DNA of 64,000 bases from Escherichia coli (GTDB taxonomy: Bacteria > Pseudomonadota > Gammaproteobacteria > Enterobacterales > Enterobacteriaceae): NCBI RefSeq assembly GCF_041248615.1, contig NZ_CP158426.1; one strand, given 5' to 3'. The position numbers and the translations under genes are program-made. Below, in pieces: positions 7,415-22,863 of this stretch. How positions within the stretch are numbered: position 1 is the first letter of the stretch; every line of letters starts with the position of its first letter. The notes beneath the pieces were generated by a model. The model made no database searches. It saw only the letters and a program-made list of their open reading frames with translations, and was not told the DNA's origin.

Positions 7415-9179
<1,765 letters not shown>

Positions 9180-9530
9180 AGTAAATAGCTGACTTATGGA
9201 TGTGCTGGGGATTCTATGTATTTAGCTGTGGCTTTACCATTACTTTTCCCGTTTTTGACTTAAATAGCAATTTACCCGCCAATTCTTGCTGAACATCTAT
9301 ACTTTTTTTGTATTTTTATGCGATTCATTGATTTCTGCAGTACGTGCAGGAAGGAATCGCAGAGCAACAGTAAAAGAATATAGTTGCTAATGATTTTATT
9401 TGATTGATTTCTTTATTGAAAATCAACAATGTGCTTAAAAATCATTCGGGTCGGATTGCCGCGAAAGAAGTGATACACTAGCGCGTCAATATCAGTGCGG
9501 TATCAGTATTCAGGTAGCTGTTGAGCCTGG

Positions 9531-9542
9531 GGCGGTAGCGTG
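9531..9542 (+). promoter_or_regulatory. ops element GGCGGTAGCGTG (RfaH recruitment site, part of JUMPstart) in the waaQ leader
   Basis: Exact 12-nt ops motif ~50 nt upstream of waaQ start. Confidence 0.8.
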
Positions 9543-9591
9543 CTTTTTCTGCTTCACCTTAATCGGATAATCTCAACAAAAAGAGTTACTT

Positions 9592-10650
9592 GTGGATAAG
9601 CCATTTCGAAGAATTTTGCTCATTAAGATGCGTTTTCATGGGGATATGTTATTAACTACTCCCGTCATTAGTTCGCTGAAAAAAAATTACCCTGACGCAA
9701 AAATCGATGTGCTGCTTTATCAGGACACCATCCCGATCCTGTCTGAAAATCCAGAGATTAACGCGCTCTACGGCATAAAAAATAAAAAAGCAAAAGCCTC
9801 AGAAAAAATTGCCAACTTTTTTCATCTCATCAAGGTATTACGTGCCAATAAGTATGACCTTATCGTCAATCTTACCGATCAATGGATGGTTGCTATACTG
9901 GTTCGCTTATTAAATGCCCGTGTGAAAATTTCCCAGGATTATCATCATCGGCAGTCTGCTTTTTGGCGTAATAGTTTCACTCATTTGGTGCCGTTGCAGG
10001 GTGGAAATGTGGTGGAAAGTAACTTATCCGTGCTGTCGCCATTGGGACTTGAATCGTTGGTGAAGCAGACAACCATGAGTTACCCGCCTGCAAGCTGGAA
10101 ACGTATGCGTCGCGAACTTGATCACGCTGGTGTTGGACAAAATTATGTGGTTATCCAACCTACGGCGCGGCAAATCTTCAAATGTTGGGACAACGCCAAG
10201 TTTTCCGCTGTGATTGATGCCTTACATGCTCGTGGTTATGAAGTCGTTCTGACGTCCGGCCCAGATAAAGACGATCTGGTCTGCGTCAATGAAATTGCGC
10301 AGGGATGCCAGACACCACCAGTAACGGCGCTGGCCGGAAAGGTGACCTTCCCGGAACTTGGTGCGTTAATCGATCATGCGCAGCTGTTTATTGGCGTTGA
10401 CTCCGCACCGGCGCATATTGCCGCAGCAGTTAATACGCCGCTGATATCGCTGTTTGGTGCGACAGACCATATTTTCTGGCGTCCTTGGTCAAATAACATG
10501 ATTCAATTCTGGGCGGGAGATTACCGGGAAATGCCAACGCGCGATCAGCGTGACCGAAATGAGATGTATCTTTCGGTTATTCCGGCGGCAGATGTCATTG
10601 CTGCTGTCGATAAATTACTGCCCTCCTCCACGACAGGTACGTCGTTATGA
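9592..10650 (+). CDS. waaQ: LPS heptosyltransferase III (GT9)
   Basis: Heptosyltransferase N-terminus RRILLIKMRFHGDMLLTTP; GTG at 9592 has aagag SD upstream; alternative TTG start at 9616 would give 344 aa. Confidence 0.85.
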   Translation: MDKPFRRILLIKMRFHGDMLLTTPVISSLKKNYPDAKIDVLLYQDTIPILSENPEINALYGIKNKKAKASEKIANFFHLIKVLRANKYDLIVNLTDQWMVAILVRLLNARVKISQDYHHRQSAFWRNSFTHLVPLQGGNVVESNLSVLSPLGLESLVKQTTMSYPPASWKRMRRELDHAGVGQNYVVIQPTARQIFKCWDNAKFSAVIDALHARGYEVVLTSGPDKDDLVCVNEIAQGCQTPPVTALAGKVTFPELGALIDHAQLFIGVDSAPAHIAAAVNTPLISLFGATDHIFWRPWSNNMIQFWAGDYREMPTRDQRDRNEMYLSVIPAADVIAAVDKLLPSSTTGTSL

Positions 10651-11771
10651 TCGTTGCTTTTTGTTTATATAAATATTTTCCCTTTGGCGGTTTGCAGCGC
10701 GATTTTATGCGTATTGCTCAGACAGTCGCCGCCCGAGGTCATCATGTTCGGGTTTATGCCCAGTCGTGGGAAGGCGAATGCCCTGATGTATTTGAACTGA
10801 TCAAAGTGCCGGTTAAATCGCATACCAATCACGGGCGCAATGCGGAGTATTTTGCTTGGGTGCAAAAACATTTACGTGAACATCCCGTCGATAGAGTTGT
10901 TGGATTCAACAAAATGCCGGGGCTGGACGTTTATTATGCCGCTGATGTTTGTTATGCCGAGAAAGTAGCGCAGGAGAAAGGCTTTTTCTATCGCCTTACG
11001 TCACGTTATCGCCATTATGCCGCCTTTGAGCGGGCAACCTTCGAACAGGGCAAGCCGACACAGCTGCTGATGCTGACAGATAAGCAAATCGCCGATTTCC
11101 AGAAACATTATCAGACTGAAGCGGAGCGTTTTCATATTCTACCACCGGGGATTTATCCTGATCGTAAATATAGCCAGCAGCCAGCCAATAGCCGTGAAAT
11201 CTTCCGTAAGAAGAATGGAATAACCGAACAACAATATTTATTGTTGCAGGTTGGTTCAGACTTCACGCGTAAAGGTGTCGATCGTTCCATTGAAGCACTT
11301 GCTTCGTTACCGGATTCGCTGCGCCACAACACATTGCTATATGTTGTTGGGCAGGATAAACCGCGAAAATTTGAGGCGCTGGCAGAAAAACGCGGCGTGC
11401 GCAGTAATGTTCACTTCTTCTCGGGGCGCAACGATGTCTCGGAATTAATGGCGGCGGCGGATTTATTACTGCATCCTGCCTACCAGGAAGCCGCGGGAAT
11501 TGTACTGCTGGAAGCGATAACTGCAGGATTACCGGTACTAACAACAGCCGTTTGTGGCTATGCGCATTATATTGTCGACGCCAATTGCGGCGAGGCTATT
11601 GCTGAGCCATTCCGCCAGGAAACATTGAATGAGATTTTACGCAAAGCGTTAACGCAATCTTCATTGCGCCAGGCCTGGGCGGAAAATGCGCGACATTATG
11701 CTGATACACAAGATTTATACAGTCTGCCAGAGAAAGCGGCGGACATCATAACGGGTGGTCTGGATGGTTGA
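10647..11771 (+). CDS. waaG: LPS core glucosyltransferase I (GT4)
   Basis: 374-aa protein [20 protein letters not shown]...; ATGA overlap with waaQ. Confidence 0.95.
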
Positions 11772-12561
11772 ACTTAAAGAGCCGTTTGCCACGTTATGGC
11801 GCGGTAAAGATCCTTTTGAGGAAGTTAAAACCTTGCAGGGTGAGGTATTTCGTGAACTGGAAACTCGCCGCACTCTGCGCTTTGAAATGGCGGGCAAAAG
11901 CTATTTTCTCAAATGGCATCGCGGCACGACCCTGAAAGAGATAATCAAAAATTTACTCTCATTGCGGATGCCAGTATTAGGCGCAGACCGCGAATGGAAT
12001 GCGATTCATCGACTGCGGGATGTCGGCGTTGATACTATGTATGGGGTGGCATTCGGCGAAAAAGGCATTAATCCGCTCACCAGAACCTCGTTTATTATAA
12101 CCGAAGATCTGACACCAACCATCAGTCTGGAAGATTACTGTGCTGACTGGGCGACTAACCCACCAGATGTTCGCGTAAAGCGTATGCTTATTAAGCGTGT
12201 CGCGACGATGGTGCGCGATATGCATGCTGCGGGCATTAACCACCGCGACTGTTATATCTGTCATTTCCTGCTACACTTGCCTTTTTCCGGTAAGGAAGAG
12301 GAGTTAAAAATTTCGGTAATTGACCTGCACCGGGCGCAGCTTCGCACGCGCGTTCCACGTCGTTGGCGCGATAAAGATCTTATTGGGCTTTATTTTTCTT
12401 CGATGAATATCGGCCTGACTCAGCGGGATATCTGGCGGTTTATGAAAGTGTATTTTGCCGCCCCGCTTAAAGACATTCTCAAGCAGGAACAAGGACTGCT
12501 GTCGCAAGCAGAAGAAAAAGCCACAAAAATCAGGGAAAGAACGATTCGAAAATCGTTGTAA
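11764..12561 (+). CDS. waaP: LPS core heptose(I) kinase
   Basis: 265-aa protein from [14 protein letters not shown]; kinase HRD motif ([11 protein letters not shown]); overlaps waaG by 8 nt. Confidence 0.9.
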
Positions 12562-12576
12562 TTTCCGGAGATAAAT

Positions 12577-13593
12577 ATGAGTGCCCACTATTTTAATCCA
12601 CAAGAGATGATCAATAAGACAATCATCTTCGATGAAAGGCCAGCGGCGTCAGTGGCATCATCATTCCATGTTGCTTATGGCATTGATAAAAACTTTCTTT
12701 TTGGTTGTGGTGTTTCAATCACGTCAGTTTTGTTACATAACAGCGACGTGAGTTTTGTTTTCCACGTTTTTATTGATGATATCCCTGAAGCCGATATCCA
12801 GCGTTTAGCCCAATTGGCGAAAAGCTATCGTACCTGTATCCAGATCCATCTAGTAAATTGTGAACGGCTTAAGGCATTACCGACGACCAAAAATTGGTCT
12901 ATTGCCATGTATTTCCGTTTTGTAATTGCAGATTACTTTATTGATCAACAAGATAAGATCCTTTACCTGGATGCTGATATCGCCTGTCAGGGAAACTTAA
13001 AGCCGCTGATAACAATGGATCTTGCCAATAACGTTGCTGCTGTTGTTACTGAACGCGATGCTAACTGGTGGTCGTTACGGGGTCAAAGTCTGCAGTGTAA
13101 TGAACTTGAAAAGGGTTACTTTAATTCAGGTGTCCTGTTAATTAATACACTAGCGTGGGCGCAGGAGTCCGTTTCTGCTAAAGCGATGTCGATGCTTGCT
13201 GATAAAGCCATCGTTTCCCGTTTAACCTATATGGATCAAGATATCCTTAATCTTATCCTGTTAGGGAAAGTTAAATTCATTGATGCTAAATACAATACGC
13301 AATTTAGTTTAAATTATGAATTAAAAAAATCATTTGTTTGTCCAATTAATGATGAAACCGTATTAATTCATTATGTCGGCCCGACAAAACCCTGGCATTA
13401 CTGGGCCGGTTATCCAAGTGCGCAACCTTTTATCAAAGCCAAAGAAGCATCGCCCTGGAAAAATGAACCGTTAATGCGGCCAGTTAACTCAAACTATGCT
13501 CGTTATTGCGCTAAGCATAATTTTAAACAAAATAAACCAATTAACGGGATAATGAATTATATTTATTATTTTTATTTAAAGATAATAAAATGA
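12577..13593 (+). CDS. waaO: GT8-family LPS core alpha-hexosyltransferase (WaaO/WaaI-like, outer-core HexII)
   Basis: 338 aa; GT8 signatures (YLDADI DxD motif, HYVGPTKPWHYWAGYP); first gene after waaP as in R1/R4 core types. Confidence 0.7.
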   Translation: MSAHYFNPQEMINKTIIFDERPAASVASSFHVAYGIDKNFLFGCGVSITSVLLHNSDVSFVFHVFIDDIPEADIQRLAQLAKSYRTCIQIHLVNCERLKALPTTKNWSIAMYFRFVIADYFIDQQDKILYLDADIACQGNLKPLITMDLANNVAAVVTERDANWWSLRGQSLQCNELEKGYFNSGVLLINTLAWAQESVSAKAMSMLADKAIVSRLTYMDQDILNLILLGKVKFIDAKYNTQFSLNYELKKSFVCPINDETVLIHYVGPTKPWHYWAGYPSAQPFIKAKEASPWKNEPLMRPVNSNYARYCAKHNFKQNKPINGIMNYIYYFYLKIIK

Positions 13594-13609
13594 AATTGAG
13601 AAAAGTTAA

Positions 13610-14605
13610 ATGAATGAATTTATAAAAGAACGGTTTTCGTATTTAGCCGATAATAAAAAAGAAAACGCCCCAGAGCTAAATGTTTCCTACGGTATCGATA
13701 AGAATTTTTTGTATGGTGCTGGCGTTTCAATTTCTTCCGTTTTGATTAATAATTCAGATATTAATTTTGTCTTTCATGTTTTCACTGATTATGTGGATGA
13801 TGATTATTTAAAGTCATTTAATGAAACAGCAAAACAATTTAATACCTCAATTATTGTATATTTAATTGACCCCAAATACTTTGCTGATCTGCCGACGTCA
13901 CAGTTTTGGTCGTACGCGACATACTTCAGGGTATTGTCTTTTGAATATCTGAGTGAAAGTATTTCCACACTGCTGTATCTGGATGCCGATGTTGTTTGTA
14001 AAGGAAGCCTGAAACCTCTCACAGAAATTATATTTAAAGATGAGTTTGCTGCGGTCGTTCCTGACAATGATAGTACTCAGGCGGCATGTGCAAAACGTCT
14101 TAACATTCCCGAAATGAATGGACGTTATTTCAATGCAGGCGTTATCTATGTCAATCTTAAAAAATGGCATGAAGCAAATTTGACACCGTATTTACTCACG
14201 CTTTTACGAGGTGAAACTAAATATGGCTCTCTTAAATATTTAGATCAGGATGCGTTGAATATCGCATTTAATATGAATAATATCTACCTTGCGAAGGATT
14301 TTGATACTATTTATACCCTGAAAAACGAACTTTATGATCGTAGTCATCGAAAGTATCAGCAAACCATTACCGATAAAACAGTGTTGATTCACTATACAGG
14401 GATAACTAAACCATGGCATAGCTGGGCTGGATATCCGTCTGCATCATACTTTAATATCGCGCGTGAACAATCTCCCTGGAAGAAATATCCTCTTAAAGAG
14501 GCGCGGACTGTTGCAGAAATGCAGAAACAATATAAGCATCTGTTTGCCCATGGTGAGTATATAAAAGGCATAACTTCATTAATTAAGTACAAGCTTAAGA
14601 AATAA
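13610..14605 (+). CDS. waaT: GT8-family LPS core alpha-hexosyltransferase (WaaT-like)
   Basis: 331 aa; YLDADV and HYTGITKPWHSWAGYP motifs; AT-rich. Confidence 0.65.
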   Translation: MNEFIKERFSYLADNKKENAPELNVSYGIDKNFLYGAGVSISSVLINNSDINFVFHVFTDYVDDDYLKSFNETAKQFNTSIIVYLIDPKYFADLPTSQFWSYATYFRVLSFEYLSESISTLLYLDADVVCKGSLKPLTEIIFKDEFAAVVPDNDSTQAACAKRLNIPEMNGRYFNAGVIYVNLKKWHEANLTPYLLTLLRGETKYGSLKYLDQDALNIAFNMNNIYLAKDFDTIYTLKNELYDRSHRKYQQTITDKTVLIHYTGITKPWHSWAGYPSASYFNIAREQSPWKKYPLKEARTVAEMQKQYKHLFAHGEYIKGITSLIKYKLKK

Positions 14606-14614
14606 ATTACTCTT

Positions 14615-15307
14615 ATGATTACAAGTATACGCTATCGCGGCTTCTCATTTTATTACAAAGATAACGATAATAAATATAAAGAAATCTTTGATGAAATACT
14701 GGCCTATAATTTTAAAACAGTAAAAGTATTACGTAATATTGATGATACCAAAGTATCGTTGATTGATACGAAATATGGTCGCTATGTTTTTAAAGTCTTT
14801 GCCCCGAAAACGAAAAGGAATGAACGTTTTTTAAAATCTTTTGTAAAAGGTGACTACTATCAGAATTTGATCGTTGAAACCGATCGTGTCAGAAGTGCAG
14901 GTCTTACTTTTCCTAATGATTTTTATTTTCTGGCTGAGCGTAAAATTTTCAACTATGCCAGTGTTTTTATCATGCTTATCGAGTATGTCGAGGGCGTAGA
15001 GCTCAATGATATGCCGATTATTCCAGAAGATGTTAAAGCAGAAATTAAGGCTTCAATGGAAAAATTGCATGCCTTAAATATGCTATCGGGCGACCCACAC
15101 CGGGGTAACTTTATCGTTAGTAAAGATGGTGTCAGGATAATTGACCTATCCGGTAAAAGCTGTACGGCAGAGCGGAAAGCCCGTGATCGTCTGGCCATGG
15201 AACGTCACCTGGGTATTACCAACGAAATAAAAGATTATGGCTACTATTCAGTAATCTACAGAACCAAACTACGCAAATTTATTAAAAAATTAAAAGGCAA
15301 AGCGTAA
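14615..15307 (+). CDS. waaY: LPS core heptose(II) kinase WaaY-like
   Basis: 230 aa, kinase-like, positioned between GT8 genes as in known core clusters. Confidence 0.7.
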   Translation: MITSIRYRGFSFYYKDNDNKYKEIFDEILAYNFKTVKVLRNIDDTKVSLIDTKYGRYVFKVFAPKTKRNERFLKSFVKGDYYQNLIVETDRVRSAGLTFPNDFYFLAERKIFNYASVFIMLIEYVEGVELNDMPIIPEDVKAEIKASMEKLHALNMLSGDPHRGNFIVSKDGVRIIDLSGKSCTAERKARDRLAMERHLGITNEIKDYGYYSVIYRTKLRKFIKKLKGKA

Positions 15308-15332
15308 ACCACACAGTCAAAACGGAACCAAC

Positions 15333-16361
15333 ATGGATTTATTAGCTGAGAGTATTACTGAAGTCGCTGTCTCTGGGGAAATTGCTAACACCGATCGTGT
15401 GTTAAATATCGCTTACGGTATTGACCGTAATTTTTTATTTGGTGCGGCCGTATCTATGCAATCAGTTGTTATGCATAACCCGGACCTTGCGGTTAAGTTT
15501 CATCTCTTTACCGACTACATTGATGAAGATTATCTACAACGTGTTAACGCTTTTACCAGCAAAAATGCTAACGTTGAAGTAAGAATTTATAAAGTCTCCA
15601 GTGCCTTTATTGATATTTTCCCCAGCCTGAAACAGTGGTCTTATGCAACATTCTTCCGTTTAGTTGCGTTCCAGTATCTGAGTGAAACTATTGAAAATCT
15701 GTTATATATCGATGCTGATGTCATCTGTAAAGGCTCATTAGCTGGATTGCTTGATATCAATTTTGATGGCGATAAGTTCGCAGCTGTTATTAAAGATGTG
15801 CCTTTTATGCAGGAAAAACCAGCGAAGCGTCTGGCTATAGAGGGACTTCCAGGTAATTATTTCAACGCCGGTGTAGTATATCTGCAGCTTGAAGCATGGG
15901 CGAAAAATGATTTTATGAATAAAGCCATTGCTATGCTGGCAAGTGACCCGCAGCATACGAAGTATAAATGCCTTGATCAGGATATTTTAAATATTCTGTT
16001 CTTTGGTCATTGTATTTTTATTAGCGGCGATTATGATTGCTTTTATGGCATTGACTATGAGTTAAAAAATAAAAGCGATGAAGATTATAAAAAGACCATT
16101 ACCGATGATACTAAGCTGATTCATTATGTTGGCGTAACGAAGCCCTGGAACGACTGGACGAATTATCCCTGCCAGAAGTATTTTAATGAGGCTTATCAGG
16201 CTTCTTGCTGGAATGATGTGGCGTTTATTCCAGCCACGAATGAAAAGCAGTATCAAGTGAAATCCAGACATTTGAAAAGAAATGGTAATATTGCATCTTC
16301 ATTTTACTATTTCATGCTCTATTATAGTAAGAAAATAGCGCGTAAGCATTTTTCCAAATAA
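15333..16361 (+). CDS. waaW: GT8-family LPS core alpha-hexosyltransferase (WaaW-like)
   Basis: 342 aa; YIDADV and HYVGVTKPWNDWTNYP motifs. Confidence 0.65.
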   Translation: MDLLAESITEVAVSGEIANTDRVLNIAYGIDRNFLFGAAVSMQSVVMHNPDLAVKFHLFTDYIDEDYLQRVNAFTSKNANVEVRIYKVSSAFIDIFPSLKQWSYATFFRLVAFQYLSETIENLLYIDADVICKGSLAGLLDINFDGDKFAAVIKDVPFMQEKPAKRLAIEGLPGNYFNAGVVYLQLEAWAKNDFMNKAIAMLASDPQHTKYKCLDQDILNILFFGHCIFISGDYDCFYGIDYELKNKSDEDYKKTITDDTKLIHYVGVTKPWNDWTNYPCQKYFNEAYQASCWNDVAFIPATNEKQYQVKSRHLKRNGNIASSFYYFMLYYSKKIARKHFSK

Positions 16362-16392
16362 TTATTAAGATTAATCACCCAGAGATTTTTTA

Positions 16393-17166
16393 ATGAACTT
16401 GCCCATTTATATTGTCTCACTTAAAAGAGATATTGAGCGAAGAAATAAAATAAATGATGTTTTTCATCGATTAAATATTAATTTTGATTTTTTTGATGCC
16501 ATAGATGCTAAAGACCCTCAAAATAAAGAAATTATTGATAAAATGAGATTAAGTGGTGTCGGCGCAGAAATGACTGATGGAGAAATTGCTTGTACATTAA
16601 GTCATCAGCTTATATATAAGGATATGATAGATAAAAATATAGAATGGGCAGTCATTCTCGAGGATGATGTTATCGTCAATGAGAAATTTAAAAAATTTCT
16701 GCAATATTTTAATCTTCCTGAAAAAGACAAGTTAAAACATAATAATTTGTATTTGCTTGGAGGACAGAAAGGATTACATGATTATCCGGTATTGGGGCAA
16801 AGCCTTTTTAGTAAAGTTAAGGTAAGTACTTGTACTTTTCGGCGTGTTAATTTCAATAAAAATAAAATTCGTCGTACATGTTCATATTTGATGAATAAAG
16901 ATATGGCACAAAAGTTGCTCAAATTGACAAAGGATTATGGCACCTATCGAGCTGATAGCTGGAAGTTAATGCATCAACATAATATTATAAAAGAGTTTTA
17001 TTTAGACGAAATAATATTACATCCTATTTTAAATGAGTTTAATAGTCATCTTGAAAGTGAAAGGCTATTAACATCGGAAAAAAAACAACCTAGAACAAGG
17101 CTTCAGAAAAGAATGAAGTTTATACGCTCCTGGATAAAGGTGGCTTTTTTTTCTCTTTTGAAATGA
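16393..17166 (+). CDS. GT25-family (Lic2A/LgtB-like) beta-glycosyltransferase; WaaV (R1) or WaaX (R4) equivalent
   Basis: 257 aa; N-terminus MNLPIYIVSLKRDIERRNKI typical of the GT25 LOS transferase family; directly precedes waaL. Confidence 0.65.
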   Translation: MNLPIYIVSLKRDIERRNKINDVFHRLNINFDFFDAIDAKDPQNKEIIDKMRLSGVGAEMTDGEIACTLSHQLIYKDMIDKNIEWAVILEDDVIVNEKFKKFLQYFNLPEKDKLKHNNLYLLGGQKGLHDYPVLGQSLFSKVKVSTCTFRRVNFNKNKIRRTCSYLMNKDMAQKLLKLTKDYGTYRADSWKLMHQHNIIKEFYLDEIILHPILNEFNSHLESERLLTSEKKQPRTRLQKRMKFIRSWIKVAFFSLLK

Positions 17167-17200
17167 GATTGTTAATTTCAATTTGTTGTGAGATATTAAC

Positions 17201-18454
17201 GTGGAAGTAAAAATTGAGCAATTTCGAAATAATAGCTGTAATTTTATTTTTTTATTGTATTTAATCGGTTTGTTGTTTGTGCCAATTGATCTTAATATCA
17301 CCACTAAAATAATTAATGCGACAGGTGCATTTTCTCTTTTCTTATTAATTGTAAATAAAAAGCACAATTATAATAAAAATGTCATTATATTAATTCTTGG
17401 TTTACTTCTTTTGGGTGCAATGAACCTTATATGGTATGAATTTTATAAAACAGAAGATGTAGTATATAGAAATGCTTATCGAGGCTACCTTGAGTCTGGA
17501 AAACTATTAGTATTTAGCTCGTTGACATTTTTATTACTAAGTAAAAATAAATTCAGGCAAAATGAAAAACTACATTTTATTTCAGCTATCTTAGTTCAAA
17601 TAATCATGCTATGTAGAGCATATTATCAAGGGATATATTTGCATGCAGACCGCATTCCCCTCTCCGCCATGAATGGGAATATTGGTCAGATGGGGGCAGC
17701 GACTATTGCGGCTTATGTGATTACATTTACAACTTTATATTCTTCAATTGTATTCATAAAAATGAAATCGAAATATAAATGGTTTCTATTTTATGCTAAC
17801 TTTGCTTTAAGCTTTGCAGCAGTAATGATGACAGGAACGCGTGCGGCAATTTTCACATTCCCACTTATGATTATGGTCATATTATTTCTTCAGCATCGTG
17901 ATCAAAAAGTGTTTTTATTTAAAGGATTGAGTGGTGTTTTTATATTGCTACTTGCTTGTGGTTTGATATTTAATAAGGAAATTGATAGGCGAATTAATTC
18001 ATTAAAAGCTGATGTTATTTCATATGCTACAAAAAATAACAGTCAATCCTCGGTCGGAGCACGTTTTGCAATGGTTAATGCAGGAATTAAAGGAAGTCCT
18101 GATGGTTTTAATTGGCAATCTCTTGAGCAGCGTGCTGAAAAGATAAAAGCATTAAGTGCAGAAAATAATATTTATAGTGGAGCTTTATTATTCCTTGATG
18201 TACATATGCATAACGAAATTGTGGAATCTCTTTCCACGAAAGGAAAAATTGGTCTTCTTGTTCTTATTATGTTCTATGTTGCAATGATCTATTACTGTAT
18301 ACGAGAGAAAAAATATATACTCTTGGTTTTCCCTGCTTCTATTATGTTATTTGGCATTAGTGATGTCATTACACATGCTAAACCAATACCGGCATCGTGG
18401 ATTGTGTGCCTCTTCCTGTCTATATCGTTTTTGAGTAAAAATGAACCACAATAA
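17201..18454 (+). CDS. waaL: O-antigen ligase
   Basis: 417-aa polytopic membrane protein at the end of the waaQ operon; GTG start uncertain. Confidence 0.75.
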   Translation: MEVKIEQFRNNSCNFIFLLYLIGLLFVPIDLNITTKIINATGAFSLFLLIVNKKHNYNKNVIILILGLLLLGAMNLIWYEFYKTEDVVYRNAYRGYLESGKLLVFSSLTFLLLSKNKFRQNEKLHFISAILVQIIMLCRAYYQGIYLHADRIPLSAMNGNIGQMGAATIAAYVITFTTLYSSIVFIKMKSKYKWFLFYANFALSFAAVMMTGTRAAIFTFPLMIMVILFLQHRDQKVFLFKGLSGVFILLLACGLIFNKEIDRRINSLKADVISYATKNNSQSSVGARFAMVNAGIKGSPDGFNWQSLEQRAEKIKALSAENNIYSGALLFLDVHMHNEIVESLSTKGKIGLLVLIMFYVAMIYYCIREKKYILLVFPASIMLFGISDVITHAKPIPASWIVCLFLSISFLSKNEPQ

Positions 18455-18470
18455 TAAAAGCGTTGACTAA

Positions 18471-18496
18471 GTAAGTGGGTATAATGCCCACTTACT
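18471..18496. terminator. Bidirectional hairpin between convergent waaL and waaC
   Basis: gtaagtggg tataatg cccacttac inverted repeat with flanking A/T runs. Confidence 0.6.
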
Positions 18497-18501
18497 ATTT
18501 A

Positions 18502-19461
18502 TTAAATTAATGTGATTTTTTTATAAACAGCCGCTGCTTCTAAATTATTTAAATTCATTAGCGGAGCCCTACAAACCACCTGATTCTTCCCATATCCGCC
18601 AATTAATCCCGGATCGGTTGGTCCATAAACCGTGATATTCGGTCTATCCAGTGCCGCCGTTAAATGGCTTAACCCCGTATCCACCGACACTACAAATTTA
18701 GCCCCGGCCAGTACGCGGGCAACGCCTTCCAGACTCATCTTCGGCAATACTTCAACATAAGCAAATCCTTCCGCCAGTCGTTTCGCCCGTTCTTCCTCAT
18801 GCGGCGCGCCCCACGGAAGTTTAATCCGTATTCCTGAATCAGCCAGTAAACCAATCAATTCTCGCCAGTGTTCTTCCGGCCAGTGTTTATCATCACGGGT
18901 CGTCGCATGAAGAAATACGGCATATTCGCCAGCATCTGTAGGCAGGTTCGTCAGGAAATGTTGTGCGATAGCATAATCACCTTGGGTTTGCGGTTTGCTA
19001 TAGCCCAAACTTTTGGCAAACAGTTCGCGGGTGCGTTCTACGGCGTGCTGCTGTTTTGCAATATGATGCTTACGATTGTAAAACAGGCTGGCTAACGGTT
19101 CTCGAACGGTTTGCCAGTCCATGCCATGCTTTACGCCATGCGCCAGACGCGTCACCAGCGCCGCGCTTTTTACCAGCCCCTGAGCGTCGATAACTGCGTC
19201 ATAGTTCTCTGCTTGTAGCGCTTCACGAAACGCTTTGCGTTCAGCTTTTATGGGGGCCGAGAACCAGGCTTTACGCCAGCGACGTATTGCCACAGGAATA
19301 ACTCGCTCAACGGCGGCGTGCCAGGAAGGAATCTGTGCGAACCCTTCTTCCACCACCCAGTCAAACTTAATCCCTGGGATTGCCTGCTGGGCATCAGTGA
19401 GTGCGGGCAGCGTATGGAGAACATCGCCCATCGACGATGTTTTAACGATCAAAACCCGCAT
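18502..19461 (-). CDS. waaC: LPS heptosyltransferase I
   Basis: 319-aa protein MRVLIVKTSSMGDVLHTLPAL... Confidence 0.95.
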   Translation of the reverse strand: MRVLIVKTSSMGDVLHTLPALTDAQQAIPGIKFDWVVEEGFAQIPSWHAAVERVIPVAIRRWRKAWFSAPIKAERKAFREALQAENYDAVIDAQGLVKSAALVTRLAHGVKHGMDWQTVREPLASLFYNRKHHIAKQQHAVERTRELFAKSLGYSKPQTQGDYAIAQHFLTNLPTDAGEYAVFLHATTRDDKHWPEEHWRELIGLLADSGIRIKLPWGAPHEEERAKRLAEGFAYVEVLPKMSLEGVARVLAGAKFVVSVDTGLSHLTAALDRPNITVYGPTDPGLIGGYGKNQVVCRAPLMNLNNLEAAAVYKKITLI

Positions 19462-19464
19462 CCG

Positions 19465-20511
19465 TCAGGCTTCCTCTTGTAACAATAGCGCGTTGAGTTC
19501 TTCCAGTACGCGCTGGGGAGTAATGTCGATCAAGCTCTGGTGATAACCCTCCGCAGCGTCACCTTTACGCACTTTGTGATAGCCGGTAATCAGGCGGATC
19601 ACGCGTGCTTTATGGGATAGCGGCGGTGTGAAGTCCGGGCTACTCGGACCATACAAGGCAACCAGCGGACGATTGAGCGCCGCCGCAACGTGCATCAGTC
19701 CAGAATCGTTAGTGACAATGGCTTTACAGGCTGCAATCAGGATAACCGCTTGATCAAGCTGTGTTTCCCCTGCCAGGTTCCGGCACCATGCCTGCTGCTC
19801 GGTATTTAAAGCGGCAAGAATCTCATTGCCCGCTTCATGATCTTTCGCCGAGCCAAACAGAACCACCTGATAACCTTCATCAATCAGCTGCTTTGCCAGC
19901 TCCGCATAGTGGTAGTGTGGCCAGCGTTTTGCCGGACCAAACTCCGCACCCGGGCAAAAGCCAATCATCGGACGTTCTGATGAAAGCGAAAATTGATTAC
20001 AGGTATATGATTTTTCACCTTCGCTCACCTGCAACTGCGGCCATAACAATGGCTGCGGCAGATCTTGTGCTGTACGCATAATGCCTTTGTCATAGGCCAG
20101 CGCGACATAGCGTTCCACCATTAGCGGCCAGGCTTCTTTATTGAGCACGCGTACATCGTTGAGTAAACCGTAGCGCATCTCGCCGCGCCAGCCGGTGCGA
20201 TGAGGAATACCCGCGAAGAAAGGCACTAATGCGGATTTGAAGGAGTTGGGTAAGACGTAGGCGCGGTCGTAGCGCTTTTCACGCAGACTATGACCCAGTT
20301 TGCGGCGTTCGCCGATTTCCAGCGCTCCGTGACCGAGAGGCATAGGAATAGCTTCGTTAACTTCCGGCATCCGCGATAATAATGGACGGCACCATGCCGG
20401 TGCCATCACGTCGATTATCGCCTGGGGATAGCGCGCCTGGAGCGTGCGATAGAGACTTTGCGACATCATCATGTCGCCAACCCAAGACGGGCCGATCACC
20501 AGTATTTTCAT
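19465..20511 (-). CDS. waaF: LPS heptosyltransferase II
   Basis: 348-aa protein MKILVIGPSWVGDMMMSQSLY... Confidence 0.95.
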   Translation of the reverse strand: MKILVIGPSWVGDMMMSQSLYRTLQARYPQAIIDVMAPAWCRPLLSRMPEVNEAIPMPLGHGALEIGERRKLGHSLREKRYDRAYVLPNSFKSALVPFFAGIPHRTGWRGEMRYGLLNDVRVLNKEAWPLMVERYVALAYDKGIMRTAQDLPQPLLWPQLQVSEGEKSYTCNQFSLSSERPMIGFCPGAEFGPAKRWPHYHYAELAKQLIDEGYQVVLFGSAKDHEAGNEILAALNTEQQAWCRNLAGETQLDQAVILIAACKAIVTNDSGLMHVAAALNRPLVALYGPSSPDFTPPLSHKARVIRLITGYHKVRKGDAAEGYHQSLIDITPQRVLEELNALLLQEEA

Positions 20512-20520
20512 GCAGAGCTC

Positions 20521-21453
20521 TTATGCGTCGCGATTCAGCCAGGCCATGTATTCCGTTACACCTTCAGCAACGGTTTTGAACGGTTTGTCGTAACCCGCCG
20601 CGCGCAGATTCGTCAGATCTGCCTGAGTGAACGCCTGATAGCGGCCTTTCAGTTTATCCGGGAACGGAATGTATTCGATCTGGCCTTTCTTGTGATAAGC
20701 AAGCGTTGCATCGGCTACAGCCTGGAAGGATTCCGCACGACCGGTGCCGAGGTTGAAGATGCCGGAAACGCCATTTTCCAGGAACCACAGGTTTACATCT
20801 GCCACGTCGCCCACATAGACGAAGTCACGTTTGAAGTTCTCGCTACCTTCGAACAGCTTCGGTGATTCACCGTTATTAAGCTGGGTGTTGAGATGGAAAG
20901 CGACGCTCGCCATGCTGCCTTTATGGCCTTCACGCGGTCCATAAACGTTGAAATAGCGGAAGCCAACAATCTGCGAGTTCGCTTCTGGCAGGATTTGACG
21001 AACATATTCATCAAACAGGAATTTTGAGTAACCGTAGACGTTCAACGGTTTTTCGTACTCGCGGGATTCAATAAAGTCGGAGGTGCGTCCGCCGTAAGTG
21101 GCTGCGGAAGAAGCGTACAGGAACGGGATTTCGCGCTCCAGACAGTAGTGCAGCAGCTCTTTGGAGTATTGATAGTTGTTATCCATCATATACTTGCCAT
21201 CCCACTCGGTGGTGGAAGAGCACGCGCCTTCGTGGAAAATCGCTTCGACATCGCCGAACTCTTCGCCAGCCATAATCTGGATCAGGAAGTCTTCCTTATC
21301 CATATAGTCCGCGATATCCAGATCCACCAGGTTCACAAACTTGGTGCCGTCTTTCAGGTTGTCCACCACCAGAATATCGGTGATGCCTTTATCATTCAGG
21401 GCCTTAACGATGTTGCTGCCGATAAAGCCCGCGCCGCCGGTAACGATGATCAT
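20521..21453 (-). CDS. hldD: ADP-L-glycero-D-manno-heptose 6-epimerase
   Basis: 310-aa protein [19 protein letters not shown] (Rossmann GxGxxG). Confidence 0.95.
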
Positions 21454-21666
21454 AACTGTAACCTTCGAATTATGGAGTCAGAGACAATCTCAGACACGAA
21501 TGCTTCTATCATATCACTACACGGCGTTGGCTTCAGCCATTCGCCAAAAGTGAGATTGATGGACGTTATTTATCCTGAATTTTGCAGAAGTGTTAACGCG
21601 TCATCTCGTCGCGACCTATAAGTTTGGGTAATATGTGCTGGAATTTGCCCTGTCTGGAGAATCGCA

Positions 21667-22863
21667 ATGCGTGGAGAATTTTATCAGCAGTTAACCAACG
21701 ATCTGGAAACCGCACGGGCGGAAGGGTTGTTTAAAGAAGAGCGCATTATTACGTCTGCGCAGCAAGCAGATATCACTGTGGCTGATGGAAGCCACGTCAT
21801 TAACTTTTGTGCCAATAACTATCTCGGACTGGCGAATCATCCGGATCTGATTGCGGCGGCAAAGGCGGGAATGGATTCTCACGGTTTCGGCATGGCTTCG
21901 GTGCGTTTTATTTGCGGCACTCAGGACAGCCATAAAGAGCTTGAACAAAAACTGGCGGCCTTCCTGGGGATGGAAGATGCGATTCTCTACTCTTCCTGCT
22001 TTGATGCTAACGGTGGCCTGTTCGAAACGCTGTTGGGCGCGGAAGACGCCATTATCTCCGATGCACTGAACCACGCGTCTATTATTGATGGTGTGCGTCT
22101 GTGCAAAGCTAAACGCTATCGTTATGCCAACAACGATATGCAGGAGCTGGAAGCACGTCTGAAAGAAGCGCGTGAAGCCGGTGCGCGTCATGTGCTGATT
22201 GCCACCGATGGTGTGTTCTCGATGGACGGCGTGATTGCCAACCTGAAAGGCGTTTGCGATCTCGCAGATAAATATGATGCCCTGGTGATGGTAGATGACT
22301 CCCACGCGGTAGGTTTTGTCGGTGAAAACGGTCGTGGTTCCCATGAATACTGCGATGTGATGGGCCGGGTCGATATTATCACCGGCACGCTCGGTAAAGC
22401 GCTGGGCGGGGCTTCTGGTGGTTATACCGCGGCGCGCAAAGAAGTGGTTGAGTGGCTGCGCCAGCGTTCTCGTCCGTACCTGTTCTCCAACTCGCTGGCA
22501 CCGGCCATTGTTGCCGCTTCCATCAAAGTGCTGGAGATGGTTGAAGCGGGTAGCGAGCTGCGTGACCGTCTGTGGGCGAACGCGCGTCAGTTCCGTGAGC
22601 AAATGTCGGCGGCGGGCTTTACCCTGGCGGGAGCCGATCACGCCATTATTCCGGTCATGCTTGGCGATGCAGTAGTGGCGCAGAAATTTGCCCGTGAGCT
22701 GCAAAAAGAGGGCATTTACGTCACCGGTTTCTTCTATCCGGTCGTTCCGAAAGGTCAGGCGCGTATTCGTACCCAGATGTCTGCGGCGCATACCCCTGAG
22801 CAAATTACGCGTGCAGTAGAAGCATTCACGCGTATTGGTAAACAACTGGGCGTTATCGCCTGA
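21667..22863 (+). CDS. kbl: 2-amino-3-ketobutyrate CoA ligase
   Basis: 398-aa PLP aminotransferase-family protein. Confidence 0.95.

Follow-up and report, generated by a model that had tools for sequence, protein, structure and literature searches.

The 412-bp region between the divergent genes waaA and waaQ, exactly positions 9180-9591 of the window (the whole 64,000-nt stretch of Escherichia coli DNA analysed here), is very probably the promoter-proximal leader of the LPS-core operon waaQ, with a canonical JUMPstart/ops element and an ortholog of the small RNA RirA, the 3' end of the short RNA being likeliest set by the ops pause. All features by which ops, JUMPstart and RirA can be recognised in a sequence were found in the window, and nothing counts against the identity of the element. 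The locus is the ortholog of one characterised before in another E. coli strain and is, as such, already known. The features are listed below.

7902-9179, minus strand: waaA (kdtA), Kdo transferase, the divergent left neighbour; ORF of 425 aa; NCBIfam NF004385, 905 bits against a cut-off of 590.
9451-9479, plus strand: putative sigma-70 promoter of waaQ/RirA; weak -35-like TCGGAT at 9451-9456, 17-bp spacer, extended -10 TGaTACACT at 9471-9479.
9486-9557, plus strand: ortholog of the K-12 sRNA RirA (b4760), 72 nt, by alignment to NC_000913.3 3808166-3808238 (minus strand).
9494-9548, plus strand: predicted extended RNA hairpin followed by a U5 run at 9544-9548, from the minimum free energy (MFE) fold.
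9504-9542, plus strand: JUMPstart element, Rfam RF01707; cmscan 55.2 bits, gathering threshold 35, model positions 1-38 of 38.
9531-9542, plus strand: ops element GGCGGTAGCGTG, the RfaH loading and RNA polymerase pause signal, read on the non-template strand; exact match.
9581-9594, plus strand: weak Shine-Dalgarno-like AAGAG (9581-9585) and the waaQ GTG start (9592), in the conserved arrangement AAGAG/6-nt spacer/GTGGAnAAG.
9592-10650, plus strand: waaQ/rfaQ, the right neighbour; ORF of 352 aa with a GTG start; NCBIfam NF007742, 710 bits.
9592-18454, plus strand: waaQ operon of nine co-oriented genes (waaQ, waaG, waaP, waaO, GT8, waaY, GT8, GT25, O-antigen ligase), from the ORF list and the annotation of NZ_LT599825.1.

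The identity of the flanking genes was established with NF004385 and NF007742, both curated NCBIfam equivalog models, and the alignment of the RfaQ model to waaQ begins at residue 1, the GTG at 9592. The window from 9180 to 22000 is 100% identical to positions 169180-182000 of NZ_LT599825.1 (E. coli NRZ14408), and the whole window would thus most probably correspond to bases 160001-224000 of that record. Beyond the nine-gene waaQ operon lie the convergent genes rfaC-rfaF-rfaD. A GT25 gene is found here where PCN033 has GT2, which we take to suggest an R4-like, not R1, core type.

AAGAG, the 6-nt spacer and GTGGAnAAG are kept in nearly all of the 15 aligned genera, and this conservation supports the GTG start of waaQ together with its weak ribosome-binding site. 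The GTG at 9592, the AAGAG and the first 12 waaQ codons are all conserved across genera, and MG1655 annotates an ATG 36 nt downstream (344 aa; corresponding to 9628); judged from this alignment, the waaQ annotated in K-12 MG1655 may be too short. The end of ops (9542) is separated from the GTG by 49 nt, or by 85 nt if the MG1655-style ATG is used.

The first-pass annotation had proposed an exact ops element about 50 nt upstream of waaQ in a 412-bp divergent intergenic region, and every part of this was borne out. GGCGGTAGCGTG at 9531-9542 is the sole match in the 64-kb window on either the exact search or with one mismatch allowed. It lies on the non-template (sense) strand in the same orientation as waaQ, in the transcribed leader ahead of the first gene of the nine-gene operon; the position that corresponds to the K-12 rirA/waaQ start is 45 nt upstream of it. 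By analogy with K-12, G10 (9540) and T11 (9541) would be the expected pause site and RNA 3' ends; the ops pause has been mapped to U11, with backtracking (PMC5995543; PMC11001881), and is among the strongest in E. coli (PMC5995543).

Could the 12-mer be a functionless chance match? When one mismatch was allowed, 20 of 100 shuffled windows contained at least one match, and the exact 12-mer is expected about 0.008 times per window by our own arithmetic. The 8-nt ops core GGCGGTAG also occurs at three further places in the window, at 44920 (plus strand), 35137 (minus) and 59151 (minus), which is near the chance count (about 2 per 128 kb, both strands), and no Rfam JUMPstart match was found at any of them. 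The 12-mer on its own is thus moderately improbable and not decisive; it is the 39-nt JUMPstart context that decides. The JUMPstart expected from the first-pass annotation was recovered over the full length of RF01707 in the sense orientation, with E = 6.4e-10 for the whole window, as the sole Rfam family above threshold. Position, orientation and spacing are orthologous across genera, and the site is identical to the experimentally characterised K-12 site. A chance match is therefore hardly conceivable; both this explanation and the idea that there is no conservation beyond ops were rejected by the K-12 and 15-genus alignments. Two Rfam matches below threshold, MIR5284 (22 bits against 93) and snoU83 (22.7 against 50), were set aside as chance, and the former only mirrors an imperfect palindrome at 9294-9386.

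The JUMPstart hairpin of 5 bp, formed by CAGGU (9511-9515) and GCCUG (9525-9529), was paired in 100% of cells in 47 distinct leaders, and one of its pairs shows AU/GU/GC variation with both sides changed. Like the other members of RF01707 in RfaH-controlled operons (rfb, cps, hly, tra and kps), the waaQ leader carries the 39-nt element within the 5' UTR, ahead of a long polysaccharide operon, and in it a 5-bp hairpin is followed by GGCGGTAGCGTG at the 3' end. What sets waaQ-type leaders apart from the K-12 rfb JUMPstart is a T-run directly after ops and a conserved 5' extension, AGUGCGnUAUC, that is complementary to ops RNA.

Across the 15 enterobacterial genera aligned, the promoter reads TGnTACACT with the TG and TACACT invariant, and TCGGAT is conserved with minor variation. 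The -10 element ends 6 nt before 9486, the position homologous to the K-12 rirA 5' end, and we infer from this homology that 9486 is the common transcription start of RirA and waaQ mRNA. The consensus promoter scan did not detect the conserved waaQ promoter, owing to its weak -35; the two AT-rich matches that it returned were set aside, as 1.7 were expected by chance.

The small RNA RirA was then compared between the window and K-12. In the MG1655 annotation, rirA (b4760) is a 73-nt ncRNA at NC_000913.3 3808166-3808238 on the minus strand. The window counterpart is identical at 67 of 73 positions, with five substitutions and one T fewer, and both JUMPstart and ops are intact. The substitutions fall at nucleotides 5, 6 and 8 near the 5' end, at nucleotide 15 (U15G) and at nucleotide 71; U15G creates a G-G mismatch that breaks a predicted stem pair, and the T-run after ops has 5 T in the window versus 6 in K-12. 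The claim that the waaQ 5' UTR gives rise to RirA in E. coli agrees with this ortholog, with the K-12 annotation and with reviews by the discovering group, which describe RirA as a 73-nt RNA in the waaQ 5' UTR containing JUMPstart and ops (PMC6358824, PMC5736990, PMC8745692). Among these, the 5' end and transcription start of RirA are given as the same as those of waaQ mRNA (PMC5736990, PMC8745692), and the binding of RirA to RfaH with RNA polymerase is reported to need ops (PMC6358824, PMC5736990). Overexpressed RirA in K-12 abolished O-antigen, truncated the core and induced rpoEP3, which is the phenotype of an rfaH deletion (PMC6358824, PMC5736990, PMC8745692). Among the RefSeq records inspected, rirA is annotated in MG1655 only.

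RirA has been grouped with 6S RNA and CsrB, among protein-titrating or 5'-UTR sRNAs (PMC5736990), and it resembles them in that it is proposed to bind protein (RfaH with RNA polymerase) rather than to base-pair. It differs from them in being a fragment of a cis leader that carries, as RNA, the signal which RfaH normally recognises in non-template DNA.

The whole intergenic region is about 80% identical to K-12 in a mosaic pattern. Positions 9180-9268, proximal to waaA, are identical, 9269-9304 are diverged, 9305-9331 form an identical conserved island, 9332-9434 have about 50% identity, 9435-9548 (about 115 bp, containing promoter, start, JUMPstart, ops and T-run) are nearly identical, and 9549-9591 are moderately diverged. 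Alignment to the K-12 leader, which had been proposed as a check, thus revealed conservation far beyond the 12-mer, with 9435-9548 nearly identical next to flanking sequence at about 50%. The two leaders have in common the orthologous waaA-waaQ locus, identical promoter hexamers, the putative start, an identical JUMPstart hairpin and ops, and the T-run after ops; the window differs by its five substitutions, shorter T-run, weaker predicted fold, diverged segments at 9269-9304 and 9332-9434, and diverged waaQ, whose product has about 72-73% amino acid identity to K-12-type WaaQ.

To examine how widely the element is kept, the 116-bp promoter and RirA segment was searched in complete E. coli genomes and found in 5424 of 5426. 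The window allele was present in 4433 of 5425 records at at least 99% identity, including O157:H7, and 954 records at 90-95% identity carry the K-12-type sequence. The window allele is the majority allele in E. coli, and K-12 carries a minority allele. One matching copy is carried by a record that is classified as a plasmid; two of the 5426 genomes gave no match. The waaA-waaQ intergenic region (9269-9304, 9332-9434 and from 9549 onward) and waaQ itself thus occur in E. coli as two deeply diverged alleles, about 80% of the window type and about 18% of the K-12 type; between them WaaQ is about 72-73% identical, and the promoter/RirA block is kept at at least 92%. This allele pattern looks as if old recombination events had had their breakpoints on either side of a core under constraint.

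Across species, one genome each was scanned with WaaQ as the anchor, which yielded 72 loci. In 46 distinct leaders of other genomes the ops core precedes the waaQ start by 49-64 nt, and the genera with an ops core ahead of waaQ include Escherichia, Citrobacter, Kluyvera, Salmonella, Silvania, Pluralibacter, Cedecea, Shimwellia, Pseudocitrobacter, Kosakonia, Buttiauxella and Leminorella. The alignment of whole intergenic regions from 15 enterobacterial genera showed a conserved promoter, JUMPstart/ops block, T-run, AAGAG and GTG; sequence identity, order, spacing, orientation and conservation were all observed for the parts in the window. In Providencia, Arsenophonus, Moellerella, Brenneria, Superficieibacter and Siccibacter (loci including L039-L062), the 600 nt ahead of waaQ contained no ops core, in agreement with the reported lack of ops in core clusters of Yersinia (PMC5589760). 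The missing ops in Providencia, Arsenophonus, Moellerella, Brenneria and others indicates that RfaH control of the core operon is not universal in Enterobacterales.

Two leaders carry unusual forms of ops. The waaQ leader of Leminorella grimontii (L032:1096-1171) has two tandem ops elements 32 nt apart, GGCGGTAGCGTT followed by GGCGGTAGCGTG, the first of which takes the place of the usual 5' arm. Citrobacter amalonaticus S646 (L051:1096-1171) has the G12A variant GGCGGTAGCGTA. The substitution G12C eliminates the U11 pause in vitro, and by analogy the natural G12A ops might pause poorly.

The waaA side of the region has features of its own. The 89 bp adjoining the waaA start (9180-9268), the same as in K-12, are almost invariant over the 15 genera, and the second island at 9305-9331, TTTTTTTGTATTTTTATGCGATTCATTG, is conserved in most of them; together these exceed typical intergenic conservation, suggesting that a leader or promoter of waaA is conserved here. 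An imperfect palindrome of about 93 nt (9294-9386) lies upstream of the waaQ promoter, with 36-nt arms that are 72% complementary, an inner CTGCAGTACGTGCAG palindrome and a left arm that overlaps the cross-genus island at 9305-9331. It folds with -27.1 kcal/mol on the plus strand (z = -3.7) and -24.4 kcal/mol on the minus strand (z = -4.3), and the K-12 allele is without a counterpart (z = -0.5). The palindrome may serve as a structure of the waaA 5' UTR or as a binding site for a protein. In E. coli E2 (NZ_CP104509.1; L004:1196-2404), the waaA-waaQ intergenic region has taken up an IS4-like ISVsa5 transposase, which lies upstream of an intact promoter/RirA block and divides the divergent control region.

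Taken with what is known from K-12, the leader would work as follows. Transcription would start at about 9486, placed by homology to the K-12 rirA 5' end, from the conserved extended -10 promoter, and 55-56 nt further on RNA polymerase would be at ops (9531-9542) and pause at U11 (9541). The non-template strand would form the ops DNA hairpin, and RfaH would bind, open and remain on the polymerase. In line with established RfaH biology, RfaH would suppress pausing and termination over the 8.9-kb, nine-gene operon and would couple transcription to translation of the first gene, with its weak ribosome-binding site and GTG start. A fraction of the transcripts would stay as a short 5'-coterminal RNA (in K-12, the annotated 73-nt RirA, with Term-seq ends at ops G10/U11), and when overexpressed this RNA, as reported for K-12 RirA, would bind RfaH with RNA polymerase in an ops-dependent manner and copy the rfaH deletion. 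Others have shown in K-12 that the polymerase pauses at U11, that RfaH loads on the ops hairpin of the non-template strand, that RirA binds RfaH and has its overexpression phenotypes, and that 3' ends fall at ops. For the window we infer, by analogy, that the promoter is used with its start at 9486, that a RirA-like RNA accumulates, and that function is equal despite the six differences.

The 3' end of the short RNA was traced with published K-12 Term-seq data (PMC7815308, Adams et al. 2021). A 3' end at 3808184 (minus strand) was recorded in LB at OD 0.4 with 62,669 reads; its Rho score was 1.04 (not significant) and its intrinsic-terminator score 6.28, where scores of at least 3.0 suggest intrinsic termination; a second leader end at 3808183 (minus strand) was recorded in another condition with 116,952 reads (PMC7815308). 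Set against the K-12 sequence, these ends are ops G10 and U11, that is, RirA nucleotides 55 and 56, and neither the annotated nucleotide 73 nor the U-run; their window counterparts are 9540 and 9541. The annotated K-12 RirA end (3808166) is 17-18 nt downstream of the Term-seq ends, so either two species may exist or the annotated 73-nt end may be approximate. The main text of Adams et al. makes no mention of waaQ, RirA or RfaH, the data standing in supplementary tables only (PMC7815308), and a literature search for other papers tying RirA to Term-seq found none. All experimental data on RirA and its 3' end were obtained in K-12; its allele and that of the window differ at six positions, one of which breaks a predicted pair.

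To test whether ops itself sets the end, the K-12 rfb leader, which has ops and no T-run, was examined. An end was expected at 2113139/8, and the table contains 2113139 (minus strand), the G10 of ops, supported by 27,479 reads; this end shows no Rho dependence, and its terminator score is 2.83 (PMC7815308). The same ops-position end in a leader without a T-run points to ops pausing and not to a waaQ-specific cleavage. The tables also have two strong orphan 3' ends between galF and rfbB, ahead of the rfb JUMPstart, at NC_000913.3 2113181 and 2113346 (both minus strand; 43,762 and 82,721 reads) (PMC7815308). By analogy with these K-12 data, the dominant leader 3' ends most likely reflect the ops pause rather than endonucleolytic processing. 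Among the candidate origins of the 3' end, the ops pause accounts for the data best, hairpin/U-run termination with trimming less well, and endonucleolytic processing least.

One alternative is an intrinsic attenuator, in which the arm upstream of JUMPstart and the ops RNA would form a long hairpin followed by the U-run, polymerase would terminate unless RfaH had loaded, and RirA would be the terminated product, possibly trimmed to the stem. Such a hairpin with U5-6 is predicted in both the window and K-12: the 5' arm AGUGCGgUAUC.GU (9494-9507), just upstream of the Rfam model, would pair with ops RNA GCGGUAGCGUGC, and in the folded RirA segment ops RNA GGUAGCGUGC is the pairing partner of AGUGCGnUAUC, with the U5-6 run following. 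Over the 47 distinct leaders the extended stem was paired in 87% of cells compared with 30-50% in slid controls, and three basal pairs showed compensatory change. The T-run after ops is conserved in most waaQ leaders and missing from the K-12 rfb JUMPstart, and the terminator score of 6.28 without Rho dependence (PMC7815308) also fits termination. However, the Term-seq ends are 2-3 nt inside the 3' arm and outside the U-run, the identical ops-G10 end occurs at rfb with no U-run and a score of only 2.83, and several genera are without the U-run. RNAalifold on the 47 leaders did not recover the extended stem, returning only the JUMPstart hairpin and a small intra-ops hairpin, and 29 of the 47 leaders, the window included, leave the central pair (column 19-57) unpaired. 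The MFE fold of the RirA segment, -19.3 kcal/mol in the window (z = -0.66) versus -22.5 in K-12 (z = -2.29), is no better than shuffles in the window. Constraints at the DNA level keep ops invariant, so the pairing evidence consists mostly of one-sided transitions opposite an invariant G or U. The consensus terminator scan found no terminator in the leader, a result explained by the predicted stem being long, interrupted and rich in G-U pairs. The extended stem is therefore treated as a purely hypothetical structure, and we regard attenuation as the source of RirA as unlikely.

The first-pass annotation had also called the leader RNA processed, and this is the part that is left unsupported. 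An endoribonuclease would then cut the full-length waaQ mRNA around 9557 to give the 72-73-nt RirA, which would fit the annotated K-12 end, 16 nt past ops and beyond both pause site and U-run; other UTR-derived sRNAs, CpxQ and GadF, do arise by processing (review PMC5736990). Against this, the three RirA reviews (PMC6358824, PMC5736990, PMC8745692) nowhere term RirA processed and speak only of a 5' end and start in common with waaQ mRNA, and the K-12 Term-seq ends are at ops G10/U11, as also at the rfb ops. In a coordinate-prefix search of the Term-seq tables (PMC7815308), the only waaQ-leader ends among the matches listed were 3808183/4, inside ops, with none at or near 3808166. Processing is, in our judgement, very unlikely. 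A more serious contender, though still a doubtful one, is that the short RNA is a nascent or abortive product of a very strong ops pause with no physiological role in trans, the effects of RirA being titration of RfaH on overexpression. Every cited RirA phenotype involves overexpression, an equivalent ops-ended RNA exists at rfb, and the strength of the ops pause (PMC5995543) would favour such a product. Yet the Term-seq read counts are high and comparable to those of genuine terminators in the same table, and in the 15-genus alignment conservation across genera extends to the part of RirA that lies 5' of JUMPstart. When rirA carries a Tn5 insertion the phenotype is mucoid, although the insertion would be polar on waaQ too.

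The reading that we prefer, a leader with canonical JUMPstart/ops whose short RNA ends at the ops pause, also allows a more specific proposal, put forward speculatively and with little expectation that it will hold in full. RirA in vivo would be a 55-56-nt RNA with its 3' end set by the ops pause, of a kind made by every ops leader, as seen at both waaQ and rfb in K-12 Term-seq; the conserved 5' arm complementary to ops RNA and the U-run, added by waaQ leaders across Enterobacteriaceae, could together make the paused complex releasing, attenuator-like, and a stable RNA that titrates RfaH would come from the waaQ leader alone. The majority allele, with its G-G mismatch and U5, would then be a weaker attenuator and RirA producer than K-12.

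For future work on RirA biogenesis, the Term-seq end at the ops pause and the annotated RirA end form a discrepancy to be reconciled, and the RirA sequence used in experiments, that of K-12, is the minority allele. Neither JUMPstart nor rirA is annotated at this locus in the non-K-12 RefSeq records inspected, though the segment is near-universal in complete E. coli genomes. As textbook RfaH/ops biology, the element controls the LPS core operon and, through it, outer-membrane integrity, serum and antibiotic resistance, and O-antigen attachment.
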